Virus record (IMG/VR): IMGVR_UViG_3300014205_000003
Span: 96,001-160,000 of that record
Origin: a virus
Taxonomy: Duplodnaviria; Caudoviricetes
DNA length: 64,000 nucleotides
Reading direction: 5' to 3' (one strand)
Positions 4,219 to 60,937 of this stretch are shown in pieces. Below the pieces are notes generated by a model, which was not told the origin of the DNA, ran no database searches, and saw nothing but the letters and a program-made list of their open reading frames with translations. The stretch's first letter is position 1. Each line of letters opens with the position of its first letter. The position numbers and the translations under genes are program-made.

Positions 4219-5157
4219 AAAACATGTTCAACGTCGAATGCGTGATTATGCAAAAGGATGGAGTAATTACTGAGCCTGCGGGTCTGGCTTGGGAAGAAAT
4301 CTACGAAGGTTTTGTTGCAGGTCCTTTTGAGTCTGACTGGCCGTACTATTTGTTTATCACTGTAACAGATATGCAGGATGCTTGTGGTGAGCCCGGATAC
4401 ATGGTTGAGATTCAAGCAGCTTCTCCTAAGGCTGCTGGAATGAAAAACCTGAAAAGTGCTGTAGAGAGTTGTGGAGAAGAGAACACAAACATCAAGAAGC
4501 TTACTCAGGTACAGCGTGCAGAACTGTTGAAGCAATATGGGATATCTGCGCATCTGTGGATCAAGTGGGACAAGTCTGCAAAAGACCCTGACAAGCTTGT
4601 GGAAGAAGCTAAGAAGGAAGCTACAGCAATTCCTATGATGTTCGGGTTCTACATGGATCGAGTTCAGAATCGAATTGGAAACACTGGTTGGGACTTCATC
4701 AAAGGGGATATTGGGTTCAAATGAAGTATAAAGTCGAAGTGATAGCAGATTCTTCTGGCAAGTGGGCAGGCAACGGTCTTACTTTTGACACTAAAGCAGA
4801 AGCTGAAGAGTACGCTAAGGATTTGATGTTCCGCTGGATACTTGTACGTGAATGGCGAGTCGTTGAAGTTCCCCCTAAAAAGGAAACTGTATGATTAGTG
4901 AAAAAACTCCTGTTGTATACAGGCTTGGCTACGAGCGCTGCGAGAATCATAAGGACGCGATGTGCTACTACAACACGAACAAGCACTCTCAGTGTCCGTT
5001 CTGTGCGGCTCAGACTATTATCAATCCTGACTTGGACAAGACAGGTGCTAAGAGTTTTGTGAAGAAGGCTATACGCTCTAAACGAAAGCACGATGATGGT
5101 CCGTATTTTGATGGTCTTTCAAAAGATATTGACTTTGACTCTGAGGAACTTGTCTGA
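4215..5157 (+). CDS. Three hypothetical proteins (4215..4724, 4721..4894, 4891..5157)
   Basis: Coupled ATGA overlaps; the last has CxxC motifs. Confidence 0.7.
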
Positions 5158-5312
5158 TGAACACACTTATCAAAGACCCTGTAGACATTAAGTGCTTGGA
5201 CATCTCAACAGCTCACATTACAGCTACAGACTCAAAGCTTCTGGAACAAGCCTGTGAAGAGGACAACCCAAGTCTGTCCGTATACGATTATAGTTACCAA
5301 CTAAGGAGCTAG
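5157..5312 (+). pseudogene. 5' fragment of a small protein (LDISTAHIT motif, DUF5983-like), truncated by TnpB cassette 1
   Basis: MNTLIKDPVDIKCLDISTAHITATDSKLLEQACEEDNPSLSVYDY then runs into the element end (AGTTACC) and stops; no 3' half on the other side. Confidence 0.6.
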
Positions 5313-5400
5313 TTGATTTGTCACGGAAGGGGGACTATAAGCTCCCCTCATCAGAATGTTTTTGGCTGCATTGAAGTCGGCATCCATCGTCACTCCACAA
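5290..5400 (-). ncRNA. Putative omegaRNA scaffold overlapping the tnpB 3' end; guide predicted to begin ~AATCGTATACGGACAGAC
   Basis: Hairpins GGGG-AGCTTATAGT-CCCC and CAACTA-GCTCCT-TAGTTG conserved in cassette 2; the 5' limit of the RNA is not determined. Confidence 0.55.
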
Positions 5401-6368
5401 GCAGTACAACAGAATGACTCTCCCTTTCGGGACAGTTTGTCTACCGCTCCGCACAAGCTACATGTCTGTGAAGAGTAAGCAGAGAAGACTTTCGTGTATC
5501 TAATGCCTTTTTCTTCACTGACTAGCTGAAGCCGACTCAAAACTTTTGAGTAGCTCCAGCGTTGCAACTTGTTCATGAATTGCTTGCTAATCTTGCCTTT
5601 AGAACCCTTCTTAACGTCTTTCAAATCTTCTACTACAAGCTCTTGAATATTGCGCAAGTCGAGAAGGTTTACCGATTGGTTGATCTTCTGATCCCGCTCT
5701 GTGAGAGCTTTCTTGAAGGCTTTAGACCCTTGTTTCTTCCTAGCTATTTTCTTGTAGACCTGTTCCATACCTACGTCGTAAATTTGCTTATCAGAAGAAG
5801 CAAGAAGTTTCTTATATCCGCAGTCAAGCCCTATAGAAGCTCCAGTAGCAGGGCTAGGAGATTCTTTCTCGAAAAAGATGTCAAGATACCACTTGCCATT
5901 TACTTTACGCAAGCAAGAAGACTTCTTAAGAGTCCAACCGTTCTGACTGAATTTAAGAAACTGCTTGTGACGTTTTGAAGGAATCTTAAGTACAATGTGG
6001 TTGCCAAGAGAGACCAATTTTATCCAAAAGTCAAAGGTGTTGTGTTCTGTATAGAATGTGCAGATTTTTTGATTTAGGCCAAACGTCTTTTGCGTGATCT
6101 TCGGCTTTGATGCTTTCTTCGTCTTGTTCTTTCTGGCTCTTGTTTTTTGAAGAATGCCAAAAGCTTGAACGAATAAACATCGACGTAAATCACAGCCTAG
6201 CCGAGTTTGAATCTTAGGAAGCTTGTCAAACTGTCTTGCGGAAGGATCGTTCCAAAAGTGATCTACGTAGAGCTGGAGAACCTTCAAAGCTTCGTTACCT
6301 ACAGTGTCGAGCTTCTGGAGCTTTCCAGTATTTGCAAAATTCAAGGACATTTGAACGGAACGAATCAC
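5301..6368 (-). CDS. tnpB: TnpB RNA-guided endonuclease
   Basis: RuvC motifs IGLDCG, VVEDL, DADFNAAKNI and Zn finger CSLCG...CTACG; all three catalytic acids intact. Confidence 0.92.
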   Translation of the reverse strand: MIRSVQMSLNFANTGKLQKLDTVGNEALKVLQLYVDHFWNDPSARQFDKLPKIQTRLGCDLRRCLFVQAFGILQKTRARKNKTKKASKPKITQKTFGLNQKICTFYTEHNTFDFWIKLVSLGNHIVLKIPSKRHKQFLKFSQNGWTLKKSSCLRKVNGKWYLDIFFEKESPSPATGASIGLDCGYKKLLASSDKQIYDVGMEQVYKKIARKKQGSKAFKKALTERDQKINQSVNLLDLRNIQELVVEDLKDVKKGSKGKISKQFMNKLQRWSYSKVLSRLQLVSEEKGIRYTKVFSAYSSQTCSLCGAVDKLSRKGESFCCTACGVTMDADFNAAKNILMRGAYSPPSVTNQLAP

Positions 6369-6532
6369 TTAGGAGCTTCTCCTGTAACGCGCTTAATAGA
6401 CTCGACAGAAATCTTACGTTGGTTTGACGGAGTCAAGTAACCCTTAAGCTTCCCTTCGTCGAACCAGCGACGAATTGAGTCTGGATGAACTCCCATCATC
6501 TTCGCAGCTTTACTAACAGATGTGTATTCCAT
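6365..6532 (-). CDS. 55-aa MerR/excisionase-type HTH protein (like the IS607 TnpA N-terminus, no recombinase domain)
   Basis: MEYTSVSKAAKMMGVHPDSIRRWFDEGKLKGYLTPSNQRKISVESIKRVTGEAPK*; TGA overlaps the tnpB GTG; below the ORF-track cutoff. Confidence 0.85.
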   Translation of the reverse strand: MEYTSVSKAAKMMGVHPDSIRRWFDEGKLKGYLTPSNQRKISVESIKRVTGEAPK

Positions 6533-6582
6533 TGTAACCTAGCCTTTCTATTGAATACTAATATAGCATAAGGAGCAATCAA

Positions 6583-8625
6583 GTGATTCCACTCTATTTC
6601 CGCTTAAGGAACTTCTGTCAGCAGAAGGATACCAAAGTCGACTATCGCTTCGGCATTACAGGTCTCATTGGCAACAATGGACATGGTAAATCAAACCTCA
6701 TCGATGCAGGTCAGTTCTTTGCCTGGACAGGCCAAGTCGTCAAAGACAAGAAAGAAGACTATCTGACTTGGGGACAATCCTCAGGCTCTGCTCAAGTCCA
6801 ATTCCAAGACAACAATCGAACCTACACGCTTACTCGTAATCTTCACAACGCTGGATGTACTCTCAAGTGGACATCTGCTAGTGGAGACACAGGTGAAGAG
6901 AAAGGCATCAAAGTTGTCGACAAGATCCTCGAAGAAGACATCCTTGGAATGCCCTTCGAAGTCTTTCGAGAAGCTAAGTTCTGCGCTCAGACTTCCCTGA
7001 TCGAAATTCTCAACATGACTGCTTCCAAGCGTATGGAGTACTTCCAAAAACTTGCAGGTGTTCAACGTGCTGAACAAATAAGAGGACTTCTGCAGACTAA
7101 GTCCAATGAACTTCCCAACGTTATGGATGTGTCTGCAGACATCAAGTCCATTGAGGACTCTGTAGTAGTGGCAGAAGAGACTGTCAACAACGCTGGTGTA
7201 GCTCTGAAGGCTTGGATGGCTACTTTGCCTTCTGAGGGTGCTGTAGAAGCTTTGGGACGCATCAATCAGACTCTCAAGACTACTCGAACTGTTGATGAAG
7301 TGTCAGCAGATATTGTTAAGTGCATACGTATTGTTCAAGAAAACACTCAGCGCATTAAAGACCTCAATGTAGACACTGCTCTGGTTCCAGTCGATCCTCC
7401 GACGCCGGAAGAGACTCTGGCAGCACAGCATACAGGATTCATCACCGCTAATAACAAGAAGATCGAAGATTTGACTCTTCAAGCTTCTAAGATTGCTGTC
7501 TATCAGATTCTTTCCAAGCCGGATACCAAACAAGTAGAAGACTTCCGAGAACTGTTAGGTAAGCAGCGTCCACTGTATGAAAGTGCTAAGACAGGTAAAT
7601 GTGAAACCTGTAAGCGTCCCTTTGAGTTTCAGGAAGATCCCAAAGAGATTATCAAGCGCTTCGAGGAAGCTGAGAAGGTCTTTGCGCTGGCTTCTGCAGA
7701 ACTCAAGCGTCAGCAGAGTGATTATGAGAAGAACACTCAAGACATTGTAAGAGCTTCTACTTCCAAGTCTGGCCTGACTAGGCAGGTTGCGGAATTGGAA
7801 GCAGATAACACTCGGAGACAAGCTTCCATACCCTCAGGCTTTGCTTTAGCTATCTATGAGCAGAAAGTTGCTAAGTATCAGACTTGGCAGAGTCAACAGG
7901 CTCACTTGAACAGCGTTCAGAAGCAAGTCAAGGAATATGAGAAGGCTATCCTAAGTGCACAGATGTGCGCGGAACAGCTGAAGAAGGAGCCTGAGCTTAC
8001 CAAGGAAGACGTTGAGAAGTTGACTCAGGAGAAGATTCGGATCGAAGATGCCTTGAGTCAGATCTCAAGCATTCAAACAGCTCAAGTGTCTGCTCAAGCT
8101 CTCATTCTGAGCAGTAAGTCGCAGTTGGATAGGTTGAAGAAGCAGCAAGAGCAGTTTGTGTTGTATGGAAAGATTAGAGGATGGCTTGAATCGGCTAGGA
8201 CATATCTGCACAGGGATGTTCTGCCTAAATTCGTGATGAGTCGACTTTTGACAGGTATGAACTCATGCTTGTCGTACTACTTGGCTCGCTTCAACGCTCC
8301 GTACAATGCTCGAGTGGATGAGAACTTTCAGTTCAAGGTTCAGTTCAAGACTGGCCCTGAGGTGTCTGCTTCTCGACTGTCTGGTGGCGAGTCTGTAGCG
8401 CTTGTGGTGGCGTTTCGCTTCGCATTGGCTGAACTGCTAGGGAAATCCTTTCCACTATTGGTAATGGATGAGCCTACAGCTTGGCTAGATCAGGAGAAGA
8501 AGCAGGTGATGGTTGATGTATTGAAAACGGCTAAGGGATTTGCTGAGAAGGGTTCGTATGTGTTCGTAGTTACACATGATCACATTCTGCTTCCGGCAAT
8601 GACACGCACGATAGAGGTTGAATAG
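6583..8625 (+). CDS. sbcC: SbcC/Rad50-like ATPase
   Basis: Walker A GNNGHGKS, coiled coil with CETC zinc hook, LSGGE signature, MDEPT Walker B, VTHD. Confidence 0.92.
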   Translation: MIPLYFRLRNFCQQKDTKVDYRFGITGLIGNNGHGKSNLIDAGQFFAWTGQVVKDKKEDYLTWGQSSGSAQVQFQDNNRTYTLTRNLHNAGCTLKWTSASGDTGEEKGIKVVDKILEEDILGMPFEVFREAKFCAQTSLIEILNMTASKRMEYFQKLAGVQRAEQIRGLLQTKSNELPNVMDVSADIKSIEDSVVVAEETVNNAGVALKAWMATLPSEGAVEALGRINQTLKTTRTVDEVSADIVKCIRIVQENTQRIKDLNVDTALVPVDPPTPEETLAAQHTGFITANNKKIEDLTLQASKIAVYQILSKPDTKQVEDFRELLGKQRPLYESAKTGKCETCKRPFEFQEDPKEIIKRFEEAEKVFALASAELKRQQSDYEKNTQDIVRASTSKSGLTRQVAELEADNTRRQASIPSGFALAIYEQKVAKYQTWQSQQAHLNSVQKQVKEYEKAILSAQMCAEQLKKEPELTKEDVEKLTQEKIRIEDALSQISSIQTAQVSAQALILSSKSQLDRLKKQQEQFVLYGKIRGWLESARTYLHRDVLPKFVMSRLLTGMNSCLSYYLARFNAPYNARVDENFQFKVQFKTGPEVSASRLSGGESVALVVAFRFALAELLGKSFPLLVMDEPTAWLDQEKKQVMVDVLKTAKGFAEKGSYVFVVTHDHILLPAMTRTIEVE

Positions 8626-17976: not shown

Positions 17977-19277
17977 AAAAAGAAAAGCTGATTGAGTTGT
18001 TGCAGAGTCTTCCAGCAGAGACTGAAGTTTTGATAATGGATAGATGTGATGTGTATTCTCCGGAAGACATTGCAGAAGGTTCTCTTCACCTGCAAGATGT
18101 CTACAGATCACAGCACAAAGGGATGAGCGGATACAGTTGGTATTTCAATCCCTGTAAGGATGCAAGAAAGAAGTCAGTAGTGATTCTTGATTGCTTCTAA
18201 AAACTCAAACGTTACTTAACAGAAAACAAAGGAACTAGGATGACAGTCAAAGAATTCAAAGAGTGGCTGAACAAGCACGGCATAGACGATAGCTACGAGA
18301 TTTGGATTGAGAGCGAAGACGCTGAAATAGAAATCATCGAGACAGACGAGCAACACCTTTCATTCAATCCCAAGAAGCATCGAGTGGTGATCTCATGACA
18401 GTCAAAGAACTTATTGAAGAATTGAAGAAGCATCCTGATACTACGGTGGTGCAGTTTGCTCATAACGAAATCACGAATGATGATGGAATGTCCTTAGCAC
18501 CTGTATATGAAGATGTTTTGCGGTTTGAAAATCGAATTCTATATCAGTACAGGCTTGCCGATGGTTACGTAACAGAGCCCGCTGAGATTAGGCGCAACAT
18601 TGCACCGAAATTTGCTACAGCCACCGAAACATGTATTTCCGTAGTTGTGCTTAGGAGTTAATATGACAGTCAAAGAAATGATTGAGCGACTTAAGAACTA
18701 TCCAGAGGACGCTGAAGTGCAGGTCGATGGCTACGACGATCTTCTACCTATGGAAGAGTGTCCTTGGGAACTCTTTCCAGACAACAACCTTCTTGTCATA
18801 CAAGCGTGGACATACAAATGACAGTCAAAGAACTGATTGAAGAACTGAAGAAGTATCCTGCAGACTTCCCTGTGAAGGTTTTTGTAGATACAGGGTTTGA
18901 CATGGCTTGGGTAGAAGTAGGAACTCTCTTCGATGGTCGCGACGTTGGAGAAAACTGTGTAAAGGTGTGTGAATGACAGTCAAAGAACTTAAGAAATGGC
19001 TCGAAGATATCCCCGATGATGCGGAGGTCTATGTACAAGATACTGAAGAGGGTGGTCTGCTCTATGTGGATAAGGATCTCCTGTACTACGACAAATCAGA
19101 CAATACGGTTGTACTATGACAGTCAAAGATTTGATTGATATGTTGGAAACAGTACCTGAAGATTACGAGATGGAATTCTTCAATTCTTGGGTGGATGATT
19201 ACACGACAAGTTACATAGACGAAGTCGCTGTATGCCCTGATCACAAGAAGAAACGTGTTAGGCTACAAACACAATGA
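17973..19277 (+). CDS. Array of seven small acidic proteins: 17973..18200 plus six MTVKE-type genes (18240..18398, 18395..18661, 18663..18821, 18818..18976, 18973..19119, 19116..19277)
   Basis: Six genes begin with the identical 14-mer ATGACAGTCAAAGA; ATGA coupling. Confidence 0.85.
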
Positions 19278-45866: not shown

Positions 45867-46327
45867 ATGAAACCAAACTTCTCAAAGATGTTCAATGGCT
45901 GGTGGATCGTTGAACACGGTAAAACTGACAGCAATAAGTATCCTGAGATTGTGTATCAGGTTCATGGGCCTTTCAGTACTCGTGAAGACGCTCGCAAAGA
46001 AGCTAAAGTCGTGAGAGATGAGGATCTCAGTAACTTCTCTTACGGTGCTTACTACACTGTTGTCAACGACTTGATTATTGAAGGGTGGCGATAATGCGTA
46101 TACTTGATTTGGAAAGTCCTAAAGGTTTTCCTTGGTGGATTGTTCAGTACTCAGAAGGGCAATTCCTCGAAACAGTCCACGGTCCTTACAAGACGCGAGA
46201 AGCTGCACGTGAAGAGTTGAATAGTTGTAAATCAGATGACGGGGAGTTCGTCTATACAGAAGACGGCGAAGAGAAGAAGTGTCAGTGGGCAATTATCAAA
46301 GATCTCTTCTTAACCTCAAAGGTGTGA
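45867..46327 (+). CDS. Two 'WW...HGPY.TR..AR' family proteins (45867..46094, 46094..46327)
   Basis: GWWIV...HGPFSTREDAR; PWWIV...HGPYKTREAAR. Confidence 0.75.
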
Positions 46328-46328
46328 T

Positions 46329-46397
46329 ATGAAAGATGAACGCTGGATTATTGCAGTAAGCAATCCGAAAAACAAGTGGTGGATAGTTACCAACTAG
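46329..46397 (+). pseudogene. 5' fragment of a WW-family gene truncated by TnpB cassette 2
   Basis: MKDERWIIAVSNPKNKWWIV-TN*, broken at the element end. Confidence 0.65.
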
Positions 46398-46405
46398 ATA
46401 GCTAG

Positions 46406-47461
46406 TCAGTTTGTCACGGAAGGGGGACTATAGGCTCCCCTCTGTCGGATGTTGATGGCCGCATTGAAGTCTGCATCCATCTTCATTCCACACGCGGTAC
46501 AACAGAATGACTCTCCCTTTCGGGACAGTTTGTCTACCGCTCCGCACAAGCTACATGTCTGCGAAGTAAAGGCAGGATTAATCCTCGTAAGGGTTAGTCC
46601 TGCTTCTTCACAAACCATCTGAAGTTTGTCCAAAACTTTTGGATAGCTCCAGCGTTGTAACTTGTTGTTAAATTGCTTGCTAATCTCGCCTTTAGAACCC
46701 TTCTTCACATCCTTGAGATCTTCGACTACAAGTTCTTGAATGTTAGTAAGATCAATCAGCTTTACAGACTGATTGATCTTTTGGTCACGTTCCTTCAATG
46801 CTCTTTTAAATGCTTTAGATCCTTGTTTCTTCCTAGCGATTTTCTCATAGACATTTTCCATGCCTACGTCGTAGGTTTTCTGATCGGAAGAAGCAAGGAG
46901 TTTCTTGTATCCACAATCAAGGCCTAAGAATGTTCCCTTCGATGTACTGGGAGTATCTTTCTCGAAGAATACATCCAAGTACCACTTCCCATTGACTTTA
47001 CGTAAGCAAGAGGACTTCTTAAGAAGCCAGCCGTGCTGACTGAACTTGAGAAATTGCTTGTGCTTACATGAAGGGATCTTAAGATTTATCTTGTTTCCTA
47101 GACAAAAGAGTTTAATCCAGAAGTCGAAAGAATTCTGCTTAGTAGAGAAAGTACAGATAAGTTCCGTGAGATTAAAAGTTTTTTGTTTGAGTACAGGCTT
47201 AGATGCTTTCTTTACTTTGTTCTTTCGAGCTCGTAGTTTCTTAAGTACGTCAAAGGCTTGAATGAAAAGACATCTTTGAAGGCGAGCGGCGAGCCACGTT
47301 GGAATTGGAGGAAGTTGATCGAACTTTGTAGCAGAAGGATCTTTCCAGAAGTGCTCTACGTAGAGATTAAGTACTCTCAGGGCTTCCACACTGAAAGTAT
47401 CAAGCTTTTGGAGCTTCCCGGCGTTTGCAAAGTTCAACGACATTTGTACTCTACGAATCAC
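46406..47461 (-). CDS. tnpB: TnpB RNA-guided endonuclease (close paralog of 5301..6368)
   Basis: LGLDCG, VVEDL, DADFNAAINI, Zn finger. Confidence 0.92.
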   Translation of the reverse strand: MIRRVQMSLNFANAGKLQKLDTFSVEALRVLNLYVEHFWKDPSATKFDQLPPIPTWLAARLQRCLFIQAFDVLKKLRARKNKVKKASKPVLKQKTFNLTELICTFSTKQNSFDFWIKLFCLGNKINLKIPSCKHKQFLKFSQHGWLLKKSSCLRKVNGKWYLDVFFEKDTPSTSKGTFLGLDCGYKKLLASSDQKTYDVGMENVYEKIARKKQGSKAFKRALKERDQKINQSVKLIDLTNIQELVVEDLKDVKKGSKGEISKQFNNKLQRWSYPKVLDKLQMVCEEAGLTLTRINPAFTSQTCSLCGAVDKLSRKGESFCCTACGMKMDADFNAAINIRQRGAYSPPSVTN

Positions 47462-47628
47462 TTAGAAGATTCTCCTGCAAGAATGCTTTGGATAGATTCT
47501 ACAGAAATCTTACGTTGCTTAGAAGGTGTCTTATACCCTTTAAGCTTCCCTTCATCAAACCATCTACGTATGGAGTCAGGATGTACTCCCATCATCTTAG
47601 CTGCTTTAGTTAACGAGATATATTCCAT
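47458..47628 (-). CDS. 56-aa MerR/excisionase-type HTH protein
   Basis: MEYISLTKAAKMMGVHPDSIRRWFDEGKLKGYKTPSKQRKISVESIQSILAGESSK*; TGA overlaps the tnpB GTG. Confidence 0.85.
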   Translation of the reverse strand: MEYISLTKAAKMMGVHPDSIRRWFDEGKLKGYKTPSKQRKISVESIQSILAGESSK

Positions 47629-47677
47629 TTTGCTGTTCCTTTCTCATTAATACTAATATAGCATAAGGATTTTTATT

Positions 47678-48202
47678 ATGGGAACTAAATGTGCGATGTG
47701 CTGTGAGTCTGCTCCTTCGGACAAGTGGTGGGTTCTTCTGTCTTTCAAGCCTAAGAAAATGCCTCGTTACCCGTACTTTGATAGCATTCATGGTCCTTAT
47801 CCAACACGTAAGGAAGCACGAGTAGCTGCAAAGAAGATTAGAGAGAACAGCAGTGAGAGTTCAATCAAACTCTCTTACTCTGTTGGAAGAAATCTAGTCA
47901 TATCCTGTGTCTTCTAACCAATGAAAGTACGAGGATTAATGCAGAATTACTATCTGGAACATCCTGACAAACTCCCTTGGTGGGTCATCTGCTATAAGAA
48001 CTATGAAGCCGAGAATAAAGACCTACATGATGGGGACTTTTTCAAGGACGCTCAACTGTATAGACTCCATGGTCCTTACATGTCTCGATCGGCAGCGAGA
48101 TCCTACCTTGAGATTTTGAAAAATAATGACATTTACGATTTTGGTGAGATCGGTCTTCGTTGGAAGATTGTAAAAGATCTCTGCGTATCCTGTAATCCCT
48201 AA
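47678..48202 (+). CDS. Two 'WW...HGPY' family proteins (47678..47917, 47921..48202)
   Basis: KWWVL...HGPYPTRKEAR; PWWVI...HGPYMSRSAAR. Confidence 0.75.
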
Positions 48203-48450
48203 AACCAATGAAAGTACGAGGGCTGAAGAGGTTGTAAAAGATCTCCTCAGCCCTCTCAACCCAACATGGAAATTTGGCTCACTGCAACAGACAAATTAGT
48301 GACTATGTTTAAAGGTGCAAGTCCTCGAAAAATCAACGGAGAGTACAGGAGTTTTAAACCGCCCTGCTTTGAGATCTCCCTTGAGGATCTGAAAAACAAA
48401 TCACCTCGTCATGTTCACCTTGACGAACCAGAAGAAGCACCTAAGAAACA

Positions 48451-51862: not shown

Positions 51863-51932
51863 CCTAGGTAGGTATTTTATCTTGTTGCTAATCCTATGCT
51901 ATATTAGTATTCAATAGAAAGGCTAGGTTATA

Positions 51933-52100
51933 ATGGAATACACATCCGTTAGTAAGGCCGCTAAGATGATGGGAGTTCATCCAGACTCAATACGCCGGTG
52001 GTTCGACGAAGGGAAACTTAAAGGATACTTGACTCCGTCAAATCAACGTAAGATCTCTGTTGAGTCAATTAAGGTTCTTACAGGAGAATCTCCTAAGTGA
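51933..52100 (+). CDS. 55-aa MerR/excisionase-type HTH protein
   Basis: 52 of 55 residues identical to 6365..6532; TGA overlaps the tnpB GTG. Confidence 0.85.
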   Translation: MEYTSVSKAAKMMGVHPDSIRRWFDEGKLKGYLTPSNQRKISVESIKVLTGESPK

Positions 52101-53410
52101 TAAGAACGACTCGTCACAAACTAACTGATAGTAACGCCCTGAAGCAACAAAGGTTACTTTATGTTTTGACTGAGAGTAAGAACGTTGCACAAACGTACTT
52201 AGACTATTTGTGGACGTATGGTTGTACTTGGCAAACTAAAGATAGTTTGGGCGCTGGTATCCTACACACCCTAGACATATCAAGGAATCTTTTTGAACAT
52301 CCGTCTATGCTGTCAAACGTAGATTTAGAAAACAGCATTCAGGGATTCTCATCGGCCTTATCGGCGCGTCTGAAGAAGTGTATACTTACTCAAGTCTTAG
52401 GGATAGTTGGAGCATCTATAGAGAAGCAGAAGAAGCGTTTGTGGCAGCTTAACAAAAGCATAACAGAAGGAAAGTCTTGCAAGCAACTGCTCAAGAAAAT
52501 CGGACAGAATGCTCCTGTTAAACCAGATCTTTCTAACTTCTCATTAGAACTAAACACACTTTGTGTTGACCTCCGACGTTTACAAAACTCGCCGTTCGAC
52601 TATTTTGTGCAACTTAAATGCTTGGGAAAAGGTATTCCTTCCATTCGTCTTCCCATTAAGTTGCACAGAGCTGATAGGAAGTTTCAATCCTGGAGAATGC
52701 TTACCAGTTTTCTGATTTCAGAGAACGAAATACAGATACGATATGAAAAAGAGACACCGCCAAAGCTTGAACAGGGCTCGGTAGTAGGTGCCGATCAAGG
52801 TTTGAAAACAACCATAACCTTCTCTACAGGCTCTATCACTCCAGCAACAGACCCTCACGGTCATTCCCTAGAAGACGTCACTCATAAATTGTCTAGACGA
52901 CGCAAAGGCTCCAAGGGCTTTAAAAGAGCTCAAGACCATCGAAAGAACTTAATCAACTTTCAGATCAAACAACTGAACTTAACTGGCATCAAACAAATCA
53001 ATCTAGAGAAGGTCTGGAACATTGGTTACAAGACTCGTAAAAGTCGATACTTGTCGCATTGGTGTAATACACTCATCCGAGACAGACTGATCCAAGCTGG
53101 AGAAGAACAAGGGGTCCTTGTGAAACTTCAGCCATCAGTCTACAGAAGTCAGAGATGCAGTGCATGTGGGTTGGTACGAAAAGCCAATCGAAAAGGAAAG
53201 GAGTACAAATGCCTTTGTGGCTTTCATCTAGATGCAGATCTGAATGCTAGTCTCAATCATGTAGTTGAACTCCCTGAGATTTCGTTTGACTTTCGTAAGT
53301 TGAATCTAAACAGAAAGGGTTTCTATTGGAAACCTGAAGGTCTGTTTGATTTAACTGGTAGGGAGTTTGCAGTCCCCTATTCCTCACAAGAAACTGACTC
53401 TAAGTTGTAA
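52097..53410 (+). CDS. tnpB: TnpB-family RNA-guided endonuclease (divergent)
   Basis: VVGADQG, INLEKV, SQRCSACG...CLCG, DADLNASLN. Confidence 0.88.
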   Translation: MIRTTRHKLTDSNALKQQRLLYVLTESKNVAQTYLDYLWTYGCTWQTKDSLGAGILHTLDISRNLFEHPSMLSNVDLENSIQGFSSALSARLKKCILTQVLGIVGASIEKQKKRLWQLNKSITEGKSCKQLLKKIGQNAPVKPDLSNFSLELNTLCVDLRRLQNSPFDYFVQLKCLGKGIPSIRLPIKLHRADRKFQSWRMLTSFLISENEIQIRYEKETPPKLEQGSVVGADQGLKTTITFSTGSITPATDPHGHSLEDVTHKLSRRRKGSKGFKRAQDHRKNLINFQIKQLNLTGIKQINLEKVWNIGYKTRKSRYLSHWCNTLIRDRLIQAGEEQGVLVKLQPSVYRSQRCSACGLVRKANRKGKEYKCLCGFHLDADLNASLNHVVELPEISFDFRKLNLNRKGFYWKPEGLFDLTGREFAVPYSSQETDSKL

Positions 53411-53430: not shown

Positions 53431-53709
53431 GTCAAAGCAGGAACTGATACTGTCACATGCTGCAACGTATTGAATGTGATAAAAGAGCCTGACGTGCGTC
53501 GAAAGGTCATAGAACAGGCCTACAAGGCTTTGAAGATGCGTGGGGTAGCGTACTTCCAGATCTACGAGGGAGACGTCTCCAGCAGGCCCTGCAAGACCAC
53601 CAAAGGTTTCCAGATGAACTGCAGAGCTAGTAGCTACATTCGCGAGTTCCATGACGTGTTTCATGGCTGTGTTAATCAATACTCAAATATTCTAGTAATG
53701 AGGAAATAA
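53431..53709 (+). pseudogene. Orphan 3' half of a diverged allele of the 51323..51862 methyltransferase
   Basis: VKAGTDTVTCCNVLNVIKE...IEQAYKALK...VAYFQIYEGD...NILVMRK* aligns with the C-terminal half of the intact gene; begins at the element right end. Confidence 0.88.
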
Positions 53710-58701: not shown

Positions 58702-60937
58702 ATGCTACTCAACGCGGCTCGTACTACTGTTTGGAACTGGGACAATGTCACTTCTTCACTCTGCCCTGACTGCGGCGAAAAGCTTATGGCTCGTCGCTGT
58801 GAAGACAAGATCTGGCACTGGGCTCATTACCCTCTCCCTAAAGGTGCAACCCCTCGTGCATGTCATGCAGAAGAGACTGCTTGGCGCTTGCAGTGGAAGT
58901 TTGCACAGATGTGCAATGATGGCTGGGAGATCGAGAAGCGTGTAGAGCTTGAAGGTAAGATTACTGTTTTGGATGCTTACAATGCTGAACAGAATCAAGT
59001 AACTATCTTCGTTCACAGCACTTCACCTAAGTCCCTCGAACGATTCGAACGTCTCAAGCGCAGTTCCTACAACTGCTACTGGATCAACTAAGGTCCCTTT
59101 GTCTGGTAACAGGCATTGAAAAGAAAGTGAATTGCTGGGACACCTAAAGTGCACATCTGTGCGCCATGGCAATCAGCAGCCGACCTCTTAATAGACCCTA
59201 GTGGCCTCTAAGAGAAGGTTCAACGACTAGTCCGTAAGGACGTAGGGTCAAGCGGCCCGAAGCACTCTCTCCTGAGCAATTAGGAGAATGATATAGCCTT
59301 TGCCACAGTGAAAATTGTGGGAGTCCTGATTAACCATCAGCAAACCGGCAGTACTTAGCGAGTACTGTTGAAAACAACTATACGAAGTAGAAATTTCGTT
59401 TTGTTTCTCAAGTAGTTTACAAATTCTGATTTGATGTATTATAATAATCCATATGCAGCGTTCACATAAAATTCGATTAGATCCTACAGTCAAGCAAGAA
59501 GTCGCAATGCGACAAGCTGCTGGAACTGCGAGATTTACTTGGAATTACGCGCTGGCTATGTGGAAAAAGCAATACGACGATTTTAAGCTAGGGCTGGCGA
59601 CTAAACCAGATGTCTACAGTATCTCCAGACGTTGGACACAAGAAAAACCAGATTGGGCTCGAGAAGTTGCATGCGGTCTTCAGAACCGTGCAATTATGAC
59701 TCTCGGAAAAGCTATGATCAGTTTTTGGAACGGGAAGACAAATTTCCCGAAATTCCATAAGAAGTCTGACAAGTCTTCTTTCTATGTGGCTAATAGTCAT
59801 GGTTATATCAAAGATGGCCGGATACACATTACGAATGTTGGAAAAGTAAAACTAGCAGAAGCTCCCCGTTTTGAGGGGCGAACGCTGTGTTATACTGTTT
59901 CTCATTCTGCAGGTAAATGGTTTGTGTCTGTTCAAGTAGAATTGACAGAACCTATTGTACCTAATCCGTCCTTGTCTGTAGTTGGTGTAGACGTCGGGAT
60001 TAAGAACATTGCAGTTGCAAGCGATGGCACTTCGTTGCCAAATCCTCATTTTCTTATCAAGCAACAACGACAGTTGAAATACTATCAACGTCAATTAGCG
60101 CGACAAGTAAAAGGATCAAATCGCCGCAATGCAACGAAAACCCGTATTGCAAAGATCCATCAGAAGATTGTAAATCAACGTCAGGACTGTGTCCACAAGT
60201 TCACTACAGCTCTTGCCAAAAACCACGGCACTGCAGTGATCGAAACACTGGACATCGAGAGTATGAAAAGTTCAGACAAGGTCTGGATGAATCGTGCTCT
60301 CCAAGACACCTGCATGCGCGAGGTCCACAGGCAACTGGAGTACAAGATGAGGGAGCTCGTAAAAGCTCCTAAGTTCTTCCCCAGCTCCAAGACCTGCTCG
60401 TCATGTGGAGATGTCAAAGAGTCCTTGCCACCCTCTATTAGGGTGTACAGATGTCAGTGTGGCTTAGAGATCGACCGCGATCTCAACGCTGCACTGAACT
60501 TGAGAAACAGGAGTTGGGTAACAACTTCTACATGCGTGGAGACCTCTAAAGGGTCTACGAAGCGCAAAACGAAACTCGTTGCCGCTAGGTAACGAACCTC
60601 GTATTACAGCTATGACGGAAAGGCCCTTGGCTCTGCTCGTACACGTCGATGCATGTGGGATGATACGTTGAAGAAGTACATGTTGTATCAACGCATGTTG
60701 AAGCCTGCTGCTATGGGTCTCTACAAGGCTACAGGAGGCGCTGTACATCGCTATGAGGGTCTGTACCACTGTAAGGACGTGAATCCCTATTATGGCTATG
60801 GAAAGGTTCGTGACATTACTCGTTGGACAGCGTTGGAAGGTCCGTTGACGCAGAAGGCTTTGGAGAACTTCCACAGTGCTCTGAGTCTGATGAACTTCCT
60901 TCGCAGGGATGATGAAAAGCCGCAGGTGAGTCCTTGA
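58702..60937 (+). CDS. CoiA-like putative nuclease, spliced join(58702..59084,60610..60937), 236 aa
   Basis: CPDCG...WHWAH...C..EETAW N-terminus; splicing gives YNCYWI|YDGKALGS in frame. Confidence 0.75.
59085..60609 (+). mobile_element. Group I intron carrying tnpB (IStron-like, no tnpA)
   Basis: P1 GGAU|C/GGUCC with U-G at the splice site; core GAATTGCTGGGA, AATCAGCAG, CAACGACTA, GATATAGCC; terminal G 60609; in-frame exon join. Confidence 0.88.
59453..60592 (+). CDS. tnpB: TnpB (IS605 OrfB type with N-terminal HTH)
   Basis: HKIRLDP...AGTARFTWN; VGVDVG, VIETL, SSKTCSSCG, DRDLNAALNL. Confidence 0.93.
   Translation: MQRSHKIRLDPTVKQEVAMRQAAGTARFTWNYALAMWKKQYDDFKLGLATKPDVYSISRRWTQEKPDWAREVACGLQNRAIMTLGKAMISFWNGKTNFPKFHKKSDKSSFYVANSHGYIKDGRIHITNVGKVKLAEAPRFEGRTLCYTVSHSAGKWFVSVQVELTEPIVPNPSLSVVGVDVGIKNIAVASDGTSLPNPHFLIKQQRQLKYYQRQLARQVKGSNRRNATKTRIAKIHQKIVNQRQDCVHKFTTALAKNHGTAVIETLDIESMKSSDKVWMNRALQDTCMREVHRQLEYKMRELVKAPKFFPSSKTCSSCGDVKESLPPSIRVYRCQCGLEIDRDLNAALNLRNRSWVTTSTCVETSKGSTKRKTKLVAAR

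Follow-up and report, generated by a model that had tools for sequence, protein, structure and literature searches.

A candidate RNA-guided homing unit in a phage genome: a tnpB cassette that lacks a transposase and lies between a broken gene and an intact, guide-mismatched homolog

How does a tnpB cassette come to lie between the broken front end of one phage gene and an intact member of the same gene family? The window in which this question arises, meaning the whole stretch of DNA that we analysed, comprises 64,000 nucleotides (bases 96001-160000) from a phage record that is complete, has terminal repeats and is 188,069 bp long. The locus, cassette 2 of this window, lies among small genes of a family that we call the WW family and has the following parts:

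46329..46382, plus strand: orphan 5' end of a WW-family gene, 18 codons, MKDERWIIAVSNPKNKWW (WW-family HMM, 13.1 bits)
46383..46602, minus strand: right end and predicted omegaRNA scaffold, overlapping the tnpB 3' end; a hairpin, then GGTAACTAT
46406..47461, minus strand: tnpB, 351 aa (Pfam Cas12f1-like_TNB, PF07282, 8e-19; PDB matches to TnpB and Cas12f)
47458..47628, minus strand: HTH protein, 56 aa (HTH_17, 3.7e-8, and MerR)
47629..47669, no strand assigned: conserved left end, 91% identical to that of cassette 1 (6543-6574) and 89% to that of cassette 3
47678..47917, plus strand: intact WW-family gene D, 79 aa; its codons 1-18 are 47678-47731, MGTKCAMCCESAPSDKWW

The phage genome contains eight tnpB genes, four of which (T1-T4) form one subfamily with 76-79% protein identity. 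T1 is the tnpB of cassette 2 and the subject of this study, T4 (5301-6368) is that of cassette 1, and T2 and T3 lie outside the window. The other four are more distant and include the tnpB of cassette 3 (52097-53410).

At the right side of the cassette, the orphan reading frame starts 1 nt past the stop codon of the preceding paralog, as other array members do, and its gene-derived part ends at the Trp-Trp codons (46382). A sequence-only reading of this locus had placed the cut after ...NKWWIV. We agree that the gene is broken, but the cut falls after WW, and the codons that follow ('IV TN stop') come from the element end ATAGTTACC, which is common to two sister copies. We assign 'IV' to the element because the same right end, which begins at 46383 and reads ATAGTTACCAAC, abuts unrelated flanks in cassette 1 (T4, at 5290) and in T3. 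Using a six-frame HMM search with the family profile, we found no 3' remainder of the orphan gene near the left end, in line with the earlier claim that this part is absent from the other side; the same search recovered four intact members, the 18-codon orphan and a few weaker, distant matches elsewhere in the genome.

At the left side, the sequence shared with cassettes 1 and 3 stops at 47669 (...GCATAAGGA), and the ATG of gene D (47678) follows 8 nt past this conserved end. The plus strand of the left end carries AAGGA, positioned as the ribosome site of gene D, so that the earlier description of an intact family member fused to a left-end ribosome site was correct. We observed that the front end of gene D and the orphan have equal length (18 codons) and the same terminal 11 nt, and that joining 46382 to 47732 yields an uninterrupted 79-codon family gene. 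Clean insertion into one gene was ruled out, as the flanks joined at the conserved ends give only a 20-codon open reading frame; the locus does not show the clean split of IS200/IS605 or IS607 transposition, as had been noted before.

The predicted guide, CCACCACTTGTTTTTCGGAT..., is the reverse complement of the orphan, read downwards from 46382. The 11-mer ACAAGTGGTGG, which in TnpB orientation corresponds to guide positions 1-11, has exactly two occurrences in the window (46372-46382 and 47721-47731); by chance, about 0.03 would be expected for any one exact 11-mer over the 128 kb of both strands. Read in the orientation used by TnpB, gene D matches the predicted guide at positions 1-11 and at 14/20 positions overall, with all 6 mismatches past base 11. 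We could therefore confirm that the guide matches the neighbouring gene over its first 11 nt only (47721-47731), and no other match in the 188-kb genome extends over 10 or more leading guide bases. The invariant Trp-Trp codons of the family account for 6/11 of the shared bases, and only ACAAG exceeds family conservation. From the mismatch, which predicts resistance, gene D looks like a guide-resistant substitute or allele. The suggestion of the sequence-only reading that the guide is tuned to spare the element's own genome inverts this relationship: any sequence beside the right end becomes the guide, and it is the neighbouring gene that differs.

Two sequences were weighed as the TAM: ACTAT, which reverses the Ile-Val codons found after WW in other members of the family, and TGCTAT of the left end. 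Both were rejected as unproven; the left flanks of an autonomous relative are of three kinds (…CCAG, …CCCT and …ATGC) and share no motif. The bases 5' of the resident copy in gene D are AGAAC, which is unlike the right end and also unlike the AATAT found 5' of recoded copies at two loci of other phages, L021 and L026.

The right end from which such a guide would be read shows conservation of its own. One right-end hairpin has compensatory changes in 7/7 pairs in an alignment with relatives, and the terminal AACTAT is common to T1, T3, T4 and about 10 IMG/VR relatives; T2 has CGTACTAT. Among the four paralogs, pairwise dN/dS is ~0.1 and dS is saturated, except over the last 65 tnpB codons, where dS falls to 0.37-0.58. 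This low dS is, as judged from the alignments, the signature of an overlapping structured RNA. We found no Rfam match for the right end or the omegaRNA, and 46200-47800 remained empty even at E=1, which includes the group I intron families that would mark an IStron; at gathering thresholds no Rfam family was found anywhere in the window, 59085-60609 included. In a separate observation, the right end of T3 reads TAATGCGTAACTAT (L003:2560-2600, genome 55084-55124) and contains an ATG that starts the downstream gene (MRNY|LPSNSS...). The T3 element end thus supplies a start codon coupled to the tnpB stop, and an HTH gene is absent from T3.

Is the nuclease of cassette 2 still active? The RuvC residues D182, E247 and D331 of T1 TnpB and its four zinc-finger cysteines are intact and occupy invariant columns of the alignment. 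A dead or domesticated relic, in which nothing is cut or in which TnpB serves as a guide-directed regulator of the WW genes, would agree with the lack of a transposase, the lack of a known target and the position of an 11-nt seed match inside the neighbouring gene. It is hard to reconcile with the intact D-E-D and zinc-finger residues, with the strong purifying selection on the protein or with the synonymous constraint on the RNA end. Known TnpB-derived regulators lack the nuclease residues (bioRxiv 10.1101/2023.11.30.569447), and this mark of TldR-type domestication, the loss of RuvC residues, is absent from T1. We consider a relic very improbable. As dS is saturated and dN/dS is ~0.1, the four subfamily copies are, on this measure, old and under selection, with no recent intragenomic transposition; the saturation of dS among these sister copies is more in keeping with independent acquisition, or with a long residence, than with recent jumps inside the genome.

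The HTH gene, whose stop overlaps the GTG start of tnpB, encodes a protein whose alignment to residues 11-65 of a 208-aa TnpA preceding a related tnpB (E 9e-7) spans the whole protein. By this homology, the HTH protein is the N-terminal DNA-binding domain of an IS607-type serine-recombinase TnpA whose catalytic domain is absent. Because the alignment with the TnpA N-terminus runs over the full length of the HTH protein, we classify cassette 2, from its sequence, as an IS607 derivative without the catalytic half of the transposase. Neither the Resolvase domain of serine recombinases (PF00239) nor the Y1 HUH transposase domain that would mark an IS200/IS605 element (PF01797) was found in searches of the whole 188-kb genome. 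In relatives, the gene that accompanies tnpB encodes a ribbon-helix-helix protein, an HTH alone or a complete TnpA. The left end carries, on its minus strand, an extended -10-like element, TGCTATATT, for HTH-tnpB, within a promoter-like site with TG (47684-47655). The left-end motif recurs in cassettes 1 and 3, and as TGCTATATTA(G/C) it is also present in T2 and at locus L066, described below. Arc in IS605, an element for which small repressors of this kind are documented (bioRxiv 10.64898/2026.09.24.754181), offers an analogy by which the HTH protein probably represses the cassette promoter.

The shared 11 nt and the uninterrupted join could instead point to gene-end replacement in the style of an integrase, in which the 54-nt substitute front end would be cargo, an IS607 TnpA acting in trans would recombine at an 11-nt core and TnpB would only guard the insertion. 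One copy of the repeat does abut the right end exactly and the other lies at the corresponding codon of gene D, the join of 46382 to 47732 restores a family gene, and full TnpA genes accompany related tnpB genes. One such relative is autonomous: five JGI metagenome contigs (L068-L072) carry a 1689-nt element, 100% identical in all five, that encodes a 189-aa Resolvase TnpA and a TnpB 56% identical to that of T1. Its right flank is the same in the four contigs that extend past the right end, and it has three different left flanks; either its left end is a boundary of genetic exchange or the contigs are assembly chimeras. These three left flanks share no core with the right end, TnpA is absent from the 188-kb genome, and IS607 recombinases act on a core of 2 nt without generating duplications (PMC10690162). 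This makes an integrase-style origin improbable.

In an alternative history of ordinary insertion and deletion, the cassette, then still served by a transposase in cis or in trans, would have entered an array member behind its WW codons, and the 3' part of that gene would later have been deleted as far as the next paralog. The 11-nt identity would then be mere family conservation without significance for homing, in keeping with the share of the Trp codons in it (6/11). The WW genes are arranged in tandem, with at least five units in the array, and the copy number differs from that of a relative phage, L065, which has one gene. Moreover, the array contains a relic that has no cassette nearby (48203-48270), an internal deletion of a further WW-family paralog in which 19 nt are identical to the start region of the gene at 47921 (MKVRGL) and six initial codons, E-like, run out of frame into a sequence resembling the 3' end of that gene (..VVKDLLSPLNP). 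As this relic has no cassette, deletions occur in the array without TnpB. Cassette 1, too, has lost the 3' part of a gene, and there no substitute is present. Against this history, the deletion would need an endpoint no more than 8 nt from the following start codon and would have to take the stop codon of the lost gene with it, and the left end would by luck have to contain a ribosome site; the same would have to be repeated at cassette 1. The equal lengths of the orphan and the front end of gene D, and the ACAAG that they share beyond the Trp codons, are likewise not expected from it. We regard insertion and deletion as unlikely, though as a serious competitor.

Cassette 1 (window 5157-6590, right end 5290) is a sister of cassette 2. 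Its right flank is a 47-codon orphan fragment with a weak DUF5983 match; the 3' part of this orphan was found nowhere in the genome, and no intact homolog of it lies on the opposite side. In its left end, AAGGAG lies about 7-8 nt before the GTG of an SbcC/Rad50-like gene, and joining the flanks just outside TGCTAT places the fragment in frame with this gene. The HTH and left-end modules of cassettes 1 (6364-6570) and 3 (51895-52101) have 90% DNA identity, although the TnpB proteins of the two cassettes belong to different subfamilies, with that of cassette 3 about 35% identical to that of T1; this suggests module exchange or gene conversion between cassettes 1 and 3. As an observation on the window itself, another tandem paralog array, of 6 small genes with spacings of 143-268 nt, lies at 18240-19158, and all 6 genes start with ATGACAGTCAAAGA (MTVKE...).

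The pairing of a displaced gene fragment with an intact, guide-mismatched homolog recurs at cassette 3. Past its right end lie 93 orphan codons that are 63-64% identical to the 3' part of an intact methyltransferase gene on the left side. Over the 14 codons of the predicted target (DTVTCCNVLNVIKE motif), we observed 0 residue differences and 11 synonymous-site differences. The right end of cassette 3 has two candidates, AACTGT at 53432 or GGAACTGAT at 53448, and the intact methyltransferase mismatches the guide under either. In a survey of 37 IMG/VR loci with TnpB relatives at 36-58% identity, the same design was present at two, L026 and L021, which belong to two unrelated phages. At L026, the right flank duplicates 99 nt from the 3' end of the upstream tail-tube-like gene, and over the first 40 nt of this copy the mismatches fall at third codon positions; L021 shows the same arrangement at the 3' end of regA. 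In both loci the left copy has an intact reading frame, and nearly all its differences from the guide are confined to third codon positions. Because the target genes at L021 and L026 are single-copy, tandem paralogy cannot explain them, and insertion followed by deletion leaves the recoded duplicates at these loci and the methyltransferase case unexplained.

We compared the right with the left flank of these cassettes at the protein level, in a test in which unrelated controls score 30-53. The scores were 165 for cassette 3, 158 for L026, 55 for L021 and 37 for cassette 2, for which the maximum of its own eight controls was 32; cassette 2 is the weakest case because its orphan has only 18 codons. 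Flank duplication was found in only about 4 of about 35 surveyed cassettes. The layout thus recurs as a minority pattern and is no general property of these elements.

We searched several collections for alleles free of the cassette. An element-free ortholog with a full-length MKDERW gene was found in none of INPHARED, IMG/VR, the JGI metagenomes and a set of 5.8 billion proteins. INPHARED blastn gave only distant RNR matches, scans of IMG/VR and JGI metagenomes with the neighbouring RNR gave a best identity of 51%, a degenerate DNA pattern for AVSNPKNKWW matched nothing in IMG/VR, and a word search returned no homolog of gene D. Among 1.8 billion representatives, the WW profile found only the four members of this phage, the one of its relative and three bacterial repeat proteins; the corresponding IMG/VR search with the cassette 3 TnpB and methyltransferase profile found nothing. 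As no guide-sensitive allele was present in any collection searched and no cassette-free ortholog was found, the predicted target is hypothetical. In a side observation, the WW profile also matches the secreted bacterial proteins P0246-P0248, in which a W(Y/F)VV...SGPY.T.(D/E)EAARA module is repeated three or four times; each phage WW gene may represent one copy of this small domain.

The phage has hardly any relatives in the databases. The nearest one, Logan contig L065 (RNR 76% identical, same gene order), lacks a cassette and carries only one WW-family gene. In the part that begins at WW, this gene is 39% identical to gene D versus 20-29% to the other paralogs, and of the 12 residues before WW it shares 3/12 with the orphan and 0/12 with the front end of gene D. 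Because of these similarities of front end and body, the comparison weakly favours a native gene that had the orphan as its front end and the body of gene D, with the present front end of D as a substitute. The closest outside match of the TnpB itself is at locus L066 (3827-5110), with 64% identity. There, a 40-aa ribbon-helix-helix gene replaces the HTH gene, the right flank starts with CCACCA like that of T1 and encodes FPHWW when read from the other strand, and the next gene follows the right end after only about 22 nt. This resemblance suggested a WW target shared with L066, which was not accepted and may be a coincidence: the WW profile finds no family gene there, and the fragment has no start codon.

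From these data we propose, with a probability of roughly 55%, that cassette 2 is an RNA-guided intronless-homing unit. Allele replacement during homing, which the sequence-only reading had offered for this locus, is favoured because the methyltransferase cassette shows the layout again, as do two unrelated phages that have a recoded intact copy; what the reading's comparison with element-free relatives called for, an ortholog of the cassette 2 locus, was not found in the collections named above. The unit would be made up of a promoter, the HTH gene left over from TnpA, tnpB and the omegaRNA, and would be unable to transpose on its own. The cassette promoter would drive the HTH gene and tnpB, with the HTH protein as a probable autorepressor, and the 3' part of the transcript would be processed to an omegaRNA that reads out of the right end into the stranded orphan. 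TnpB would in this way be programmed against alleles that still carry the orphan sequence next to a TAM. Gene D, with a different front end of the same length and a ribosome site from the cassette left end, would be spared while its function is kept. When a co-infecting relative carries a sensitive allele, its genome would be cut by TnpB, and repair from the cassette-bearing genome would copy the cassette together with the resistant gene, resulting in co-conversion and allele replacement. Gene D would be either a chimera of a foreign front end and a native body or a whole foreign allele.

More tentatively, and with rather less than even confidence, we suggest that phages harbour travelling units of three parts: a guide-resistant substitute, a nuclease with its regulator and a displaced fragment that serves as the guide. 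If such units exist, each would be an allele-specific, RNA-programmed gene drive between co-infecting phages, in which the cost of insertion is solved by gene-end replacement and not by splicing. The known role of TnpB is to guard IS605 and IS607 transposons, and its life after the loss of the transposase is, to our knowledge, mostly conjecture. If the layout works as proposed, it would show a route from an RNA-guided nuclease to a self-sufficient viral homing element, it would explain orphan gene fragments and mosaic boundaries beside phage tnpB genes, and it would be a natural combination of nuclease, guide and recoded rescue, the logic of engineered cleave-and-rescue gene drives.

We found no description of a TnpB layout of this kind in the literature, and cassette 2 resembles several known systems in part. 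IS607 elements are recognized by a GG core dinucleotide, a G-rich TAM and a scarless split of the target. Cassette 2 is like them in that its HTH protein is homologous to the TnpA N-domain, its putative omegaRNA overlaps the tnpB 3' end and its guide would come from the right flank. TnpB relatives at 40-56% identity adjoin full serine-recombinase TnpA genes, and the TnpB falls into the same broad clade as that of IS607 elements such as the C. botulinum IStron (PMC10690162). Unlike IS607 elements, cassette 2 has no recombinase domain, no RAGATH-18 or other Rfam match and no autonomous transposition; its end is AACTAT and not GG, and its target gene is not cleanly split.

The T-even free-standing homing endonucleases (SegF, SegB, SegG and Mob) are likewise encoded by nuclease genes that lie between phage genes (PMC13565253). 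In intronless homing, the resident allele is resistant by sequence, a co-infecting relative is cleaved and flanking markers are co-converted (PMC13565253). At cassette 2 the neighbouring resident allele is mismatched, hence predicted to be resistant, and spread would be expected through cleavage during co-infection. Unlike in Seg and Mob, specificity would lie in a guide RNA from a retained fragment of the sensitive allele and not in protein-DNA contacts; as the guide would be copied from it, the orphan would be a functional part of the element.

Spread of TnpB independent of TnpA has been described for IStrons that keep TnpB after loss of TnpA and for an IS605 gene drive in plasmids (PMC11870625), and cassette 2 would share with these systems the copying driven by TnpB without transposase activity. 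Those elements interrupt their site or splice out, and, unlike cassette 2, none has been described with a resistant substitute of the displaced segment. Splicing limits the cost of insertion in IStrons (PMC10690162), and gene-end replacement would be an alternative. In this last respect cassette 2 is like integrative elements with attP in tRNA genes, in which the new gene end comes from the element side and the old end remains as a stub. It differs from them in enzyme class and recognition mechanism, and in that the stub at cassette 2 would double as the guide.
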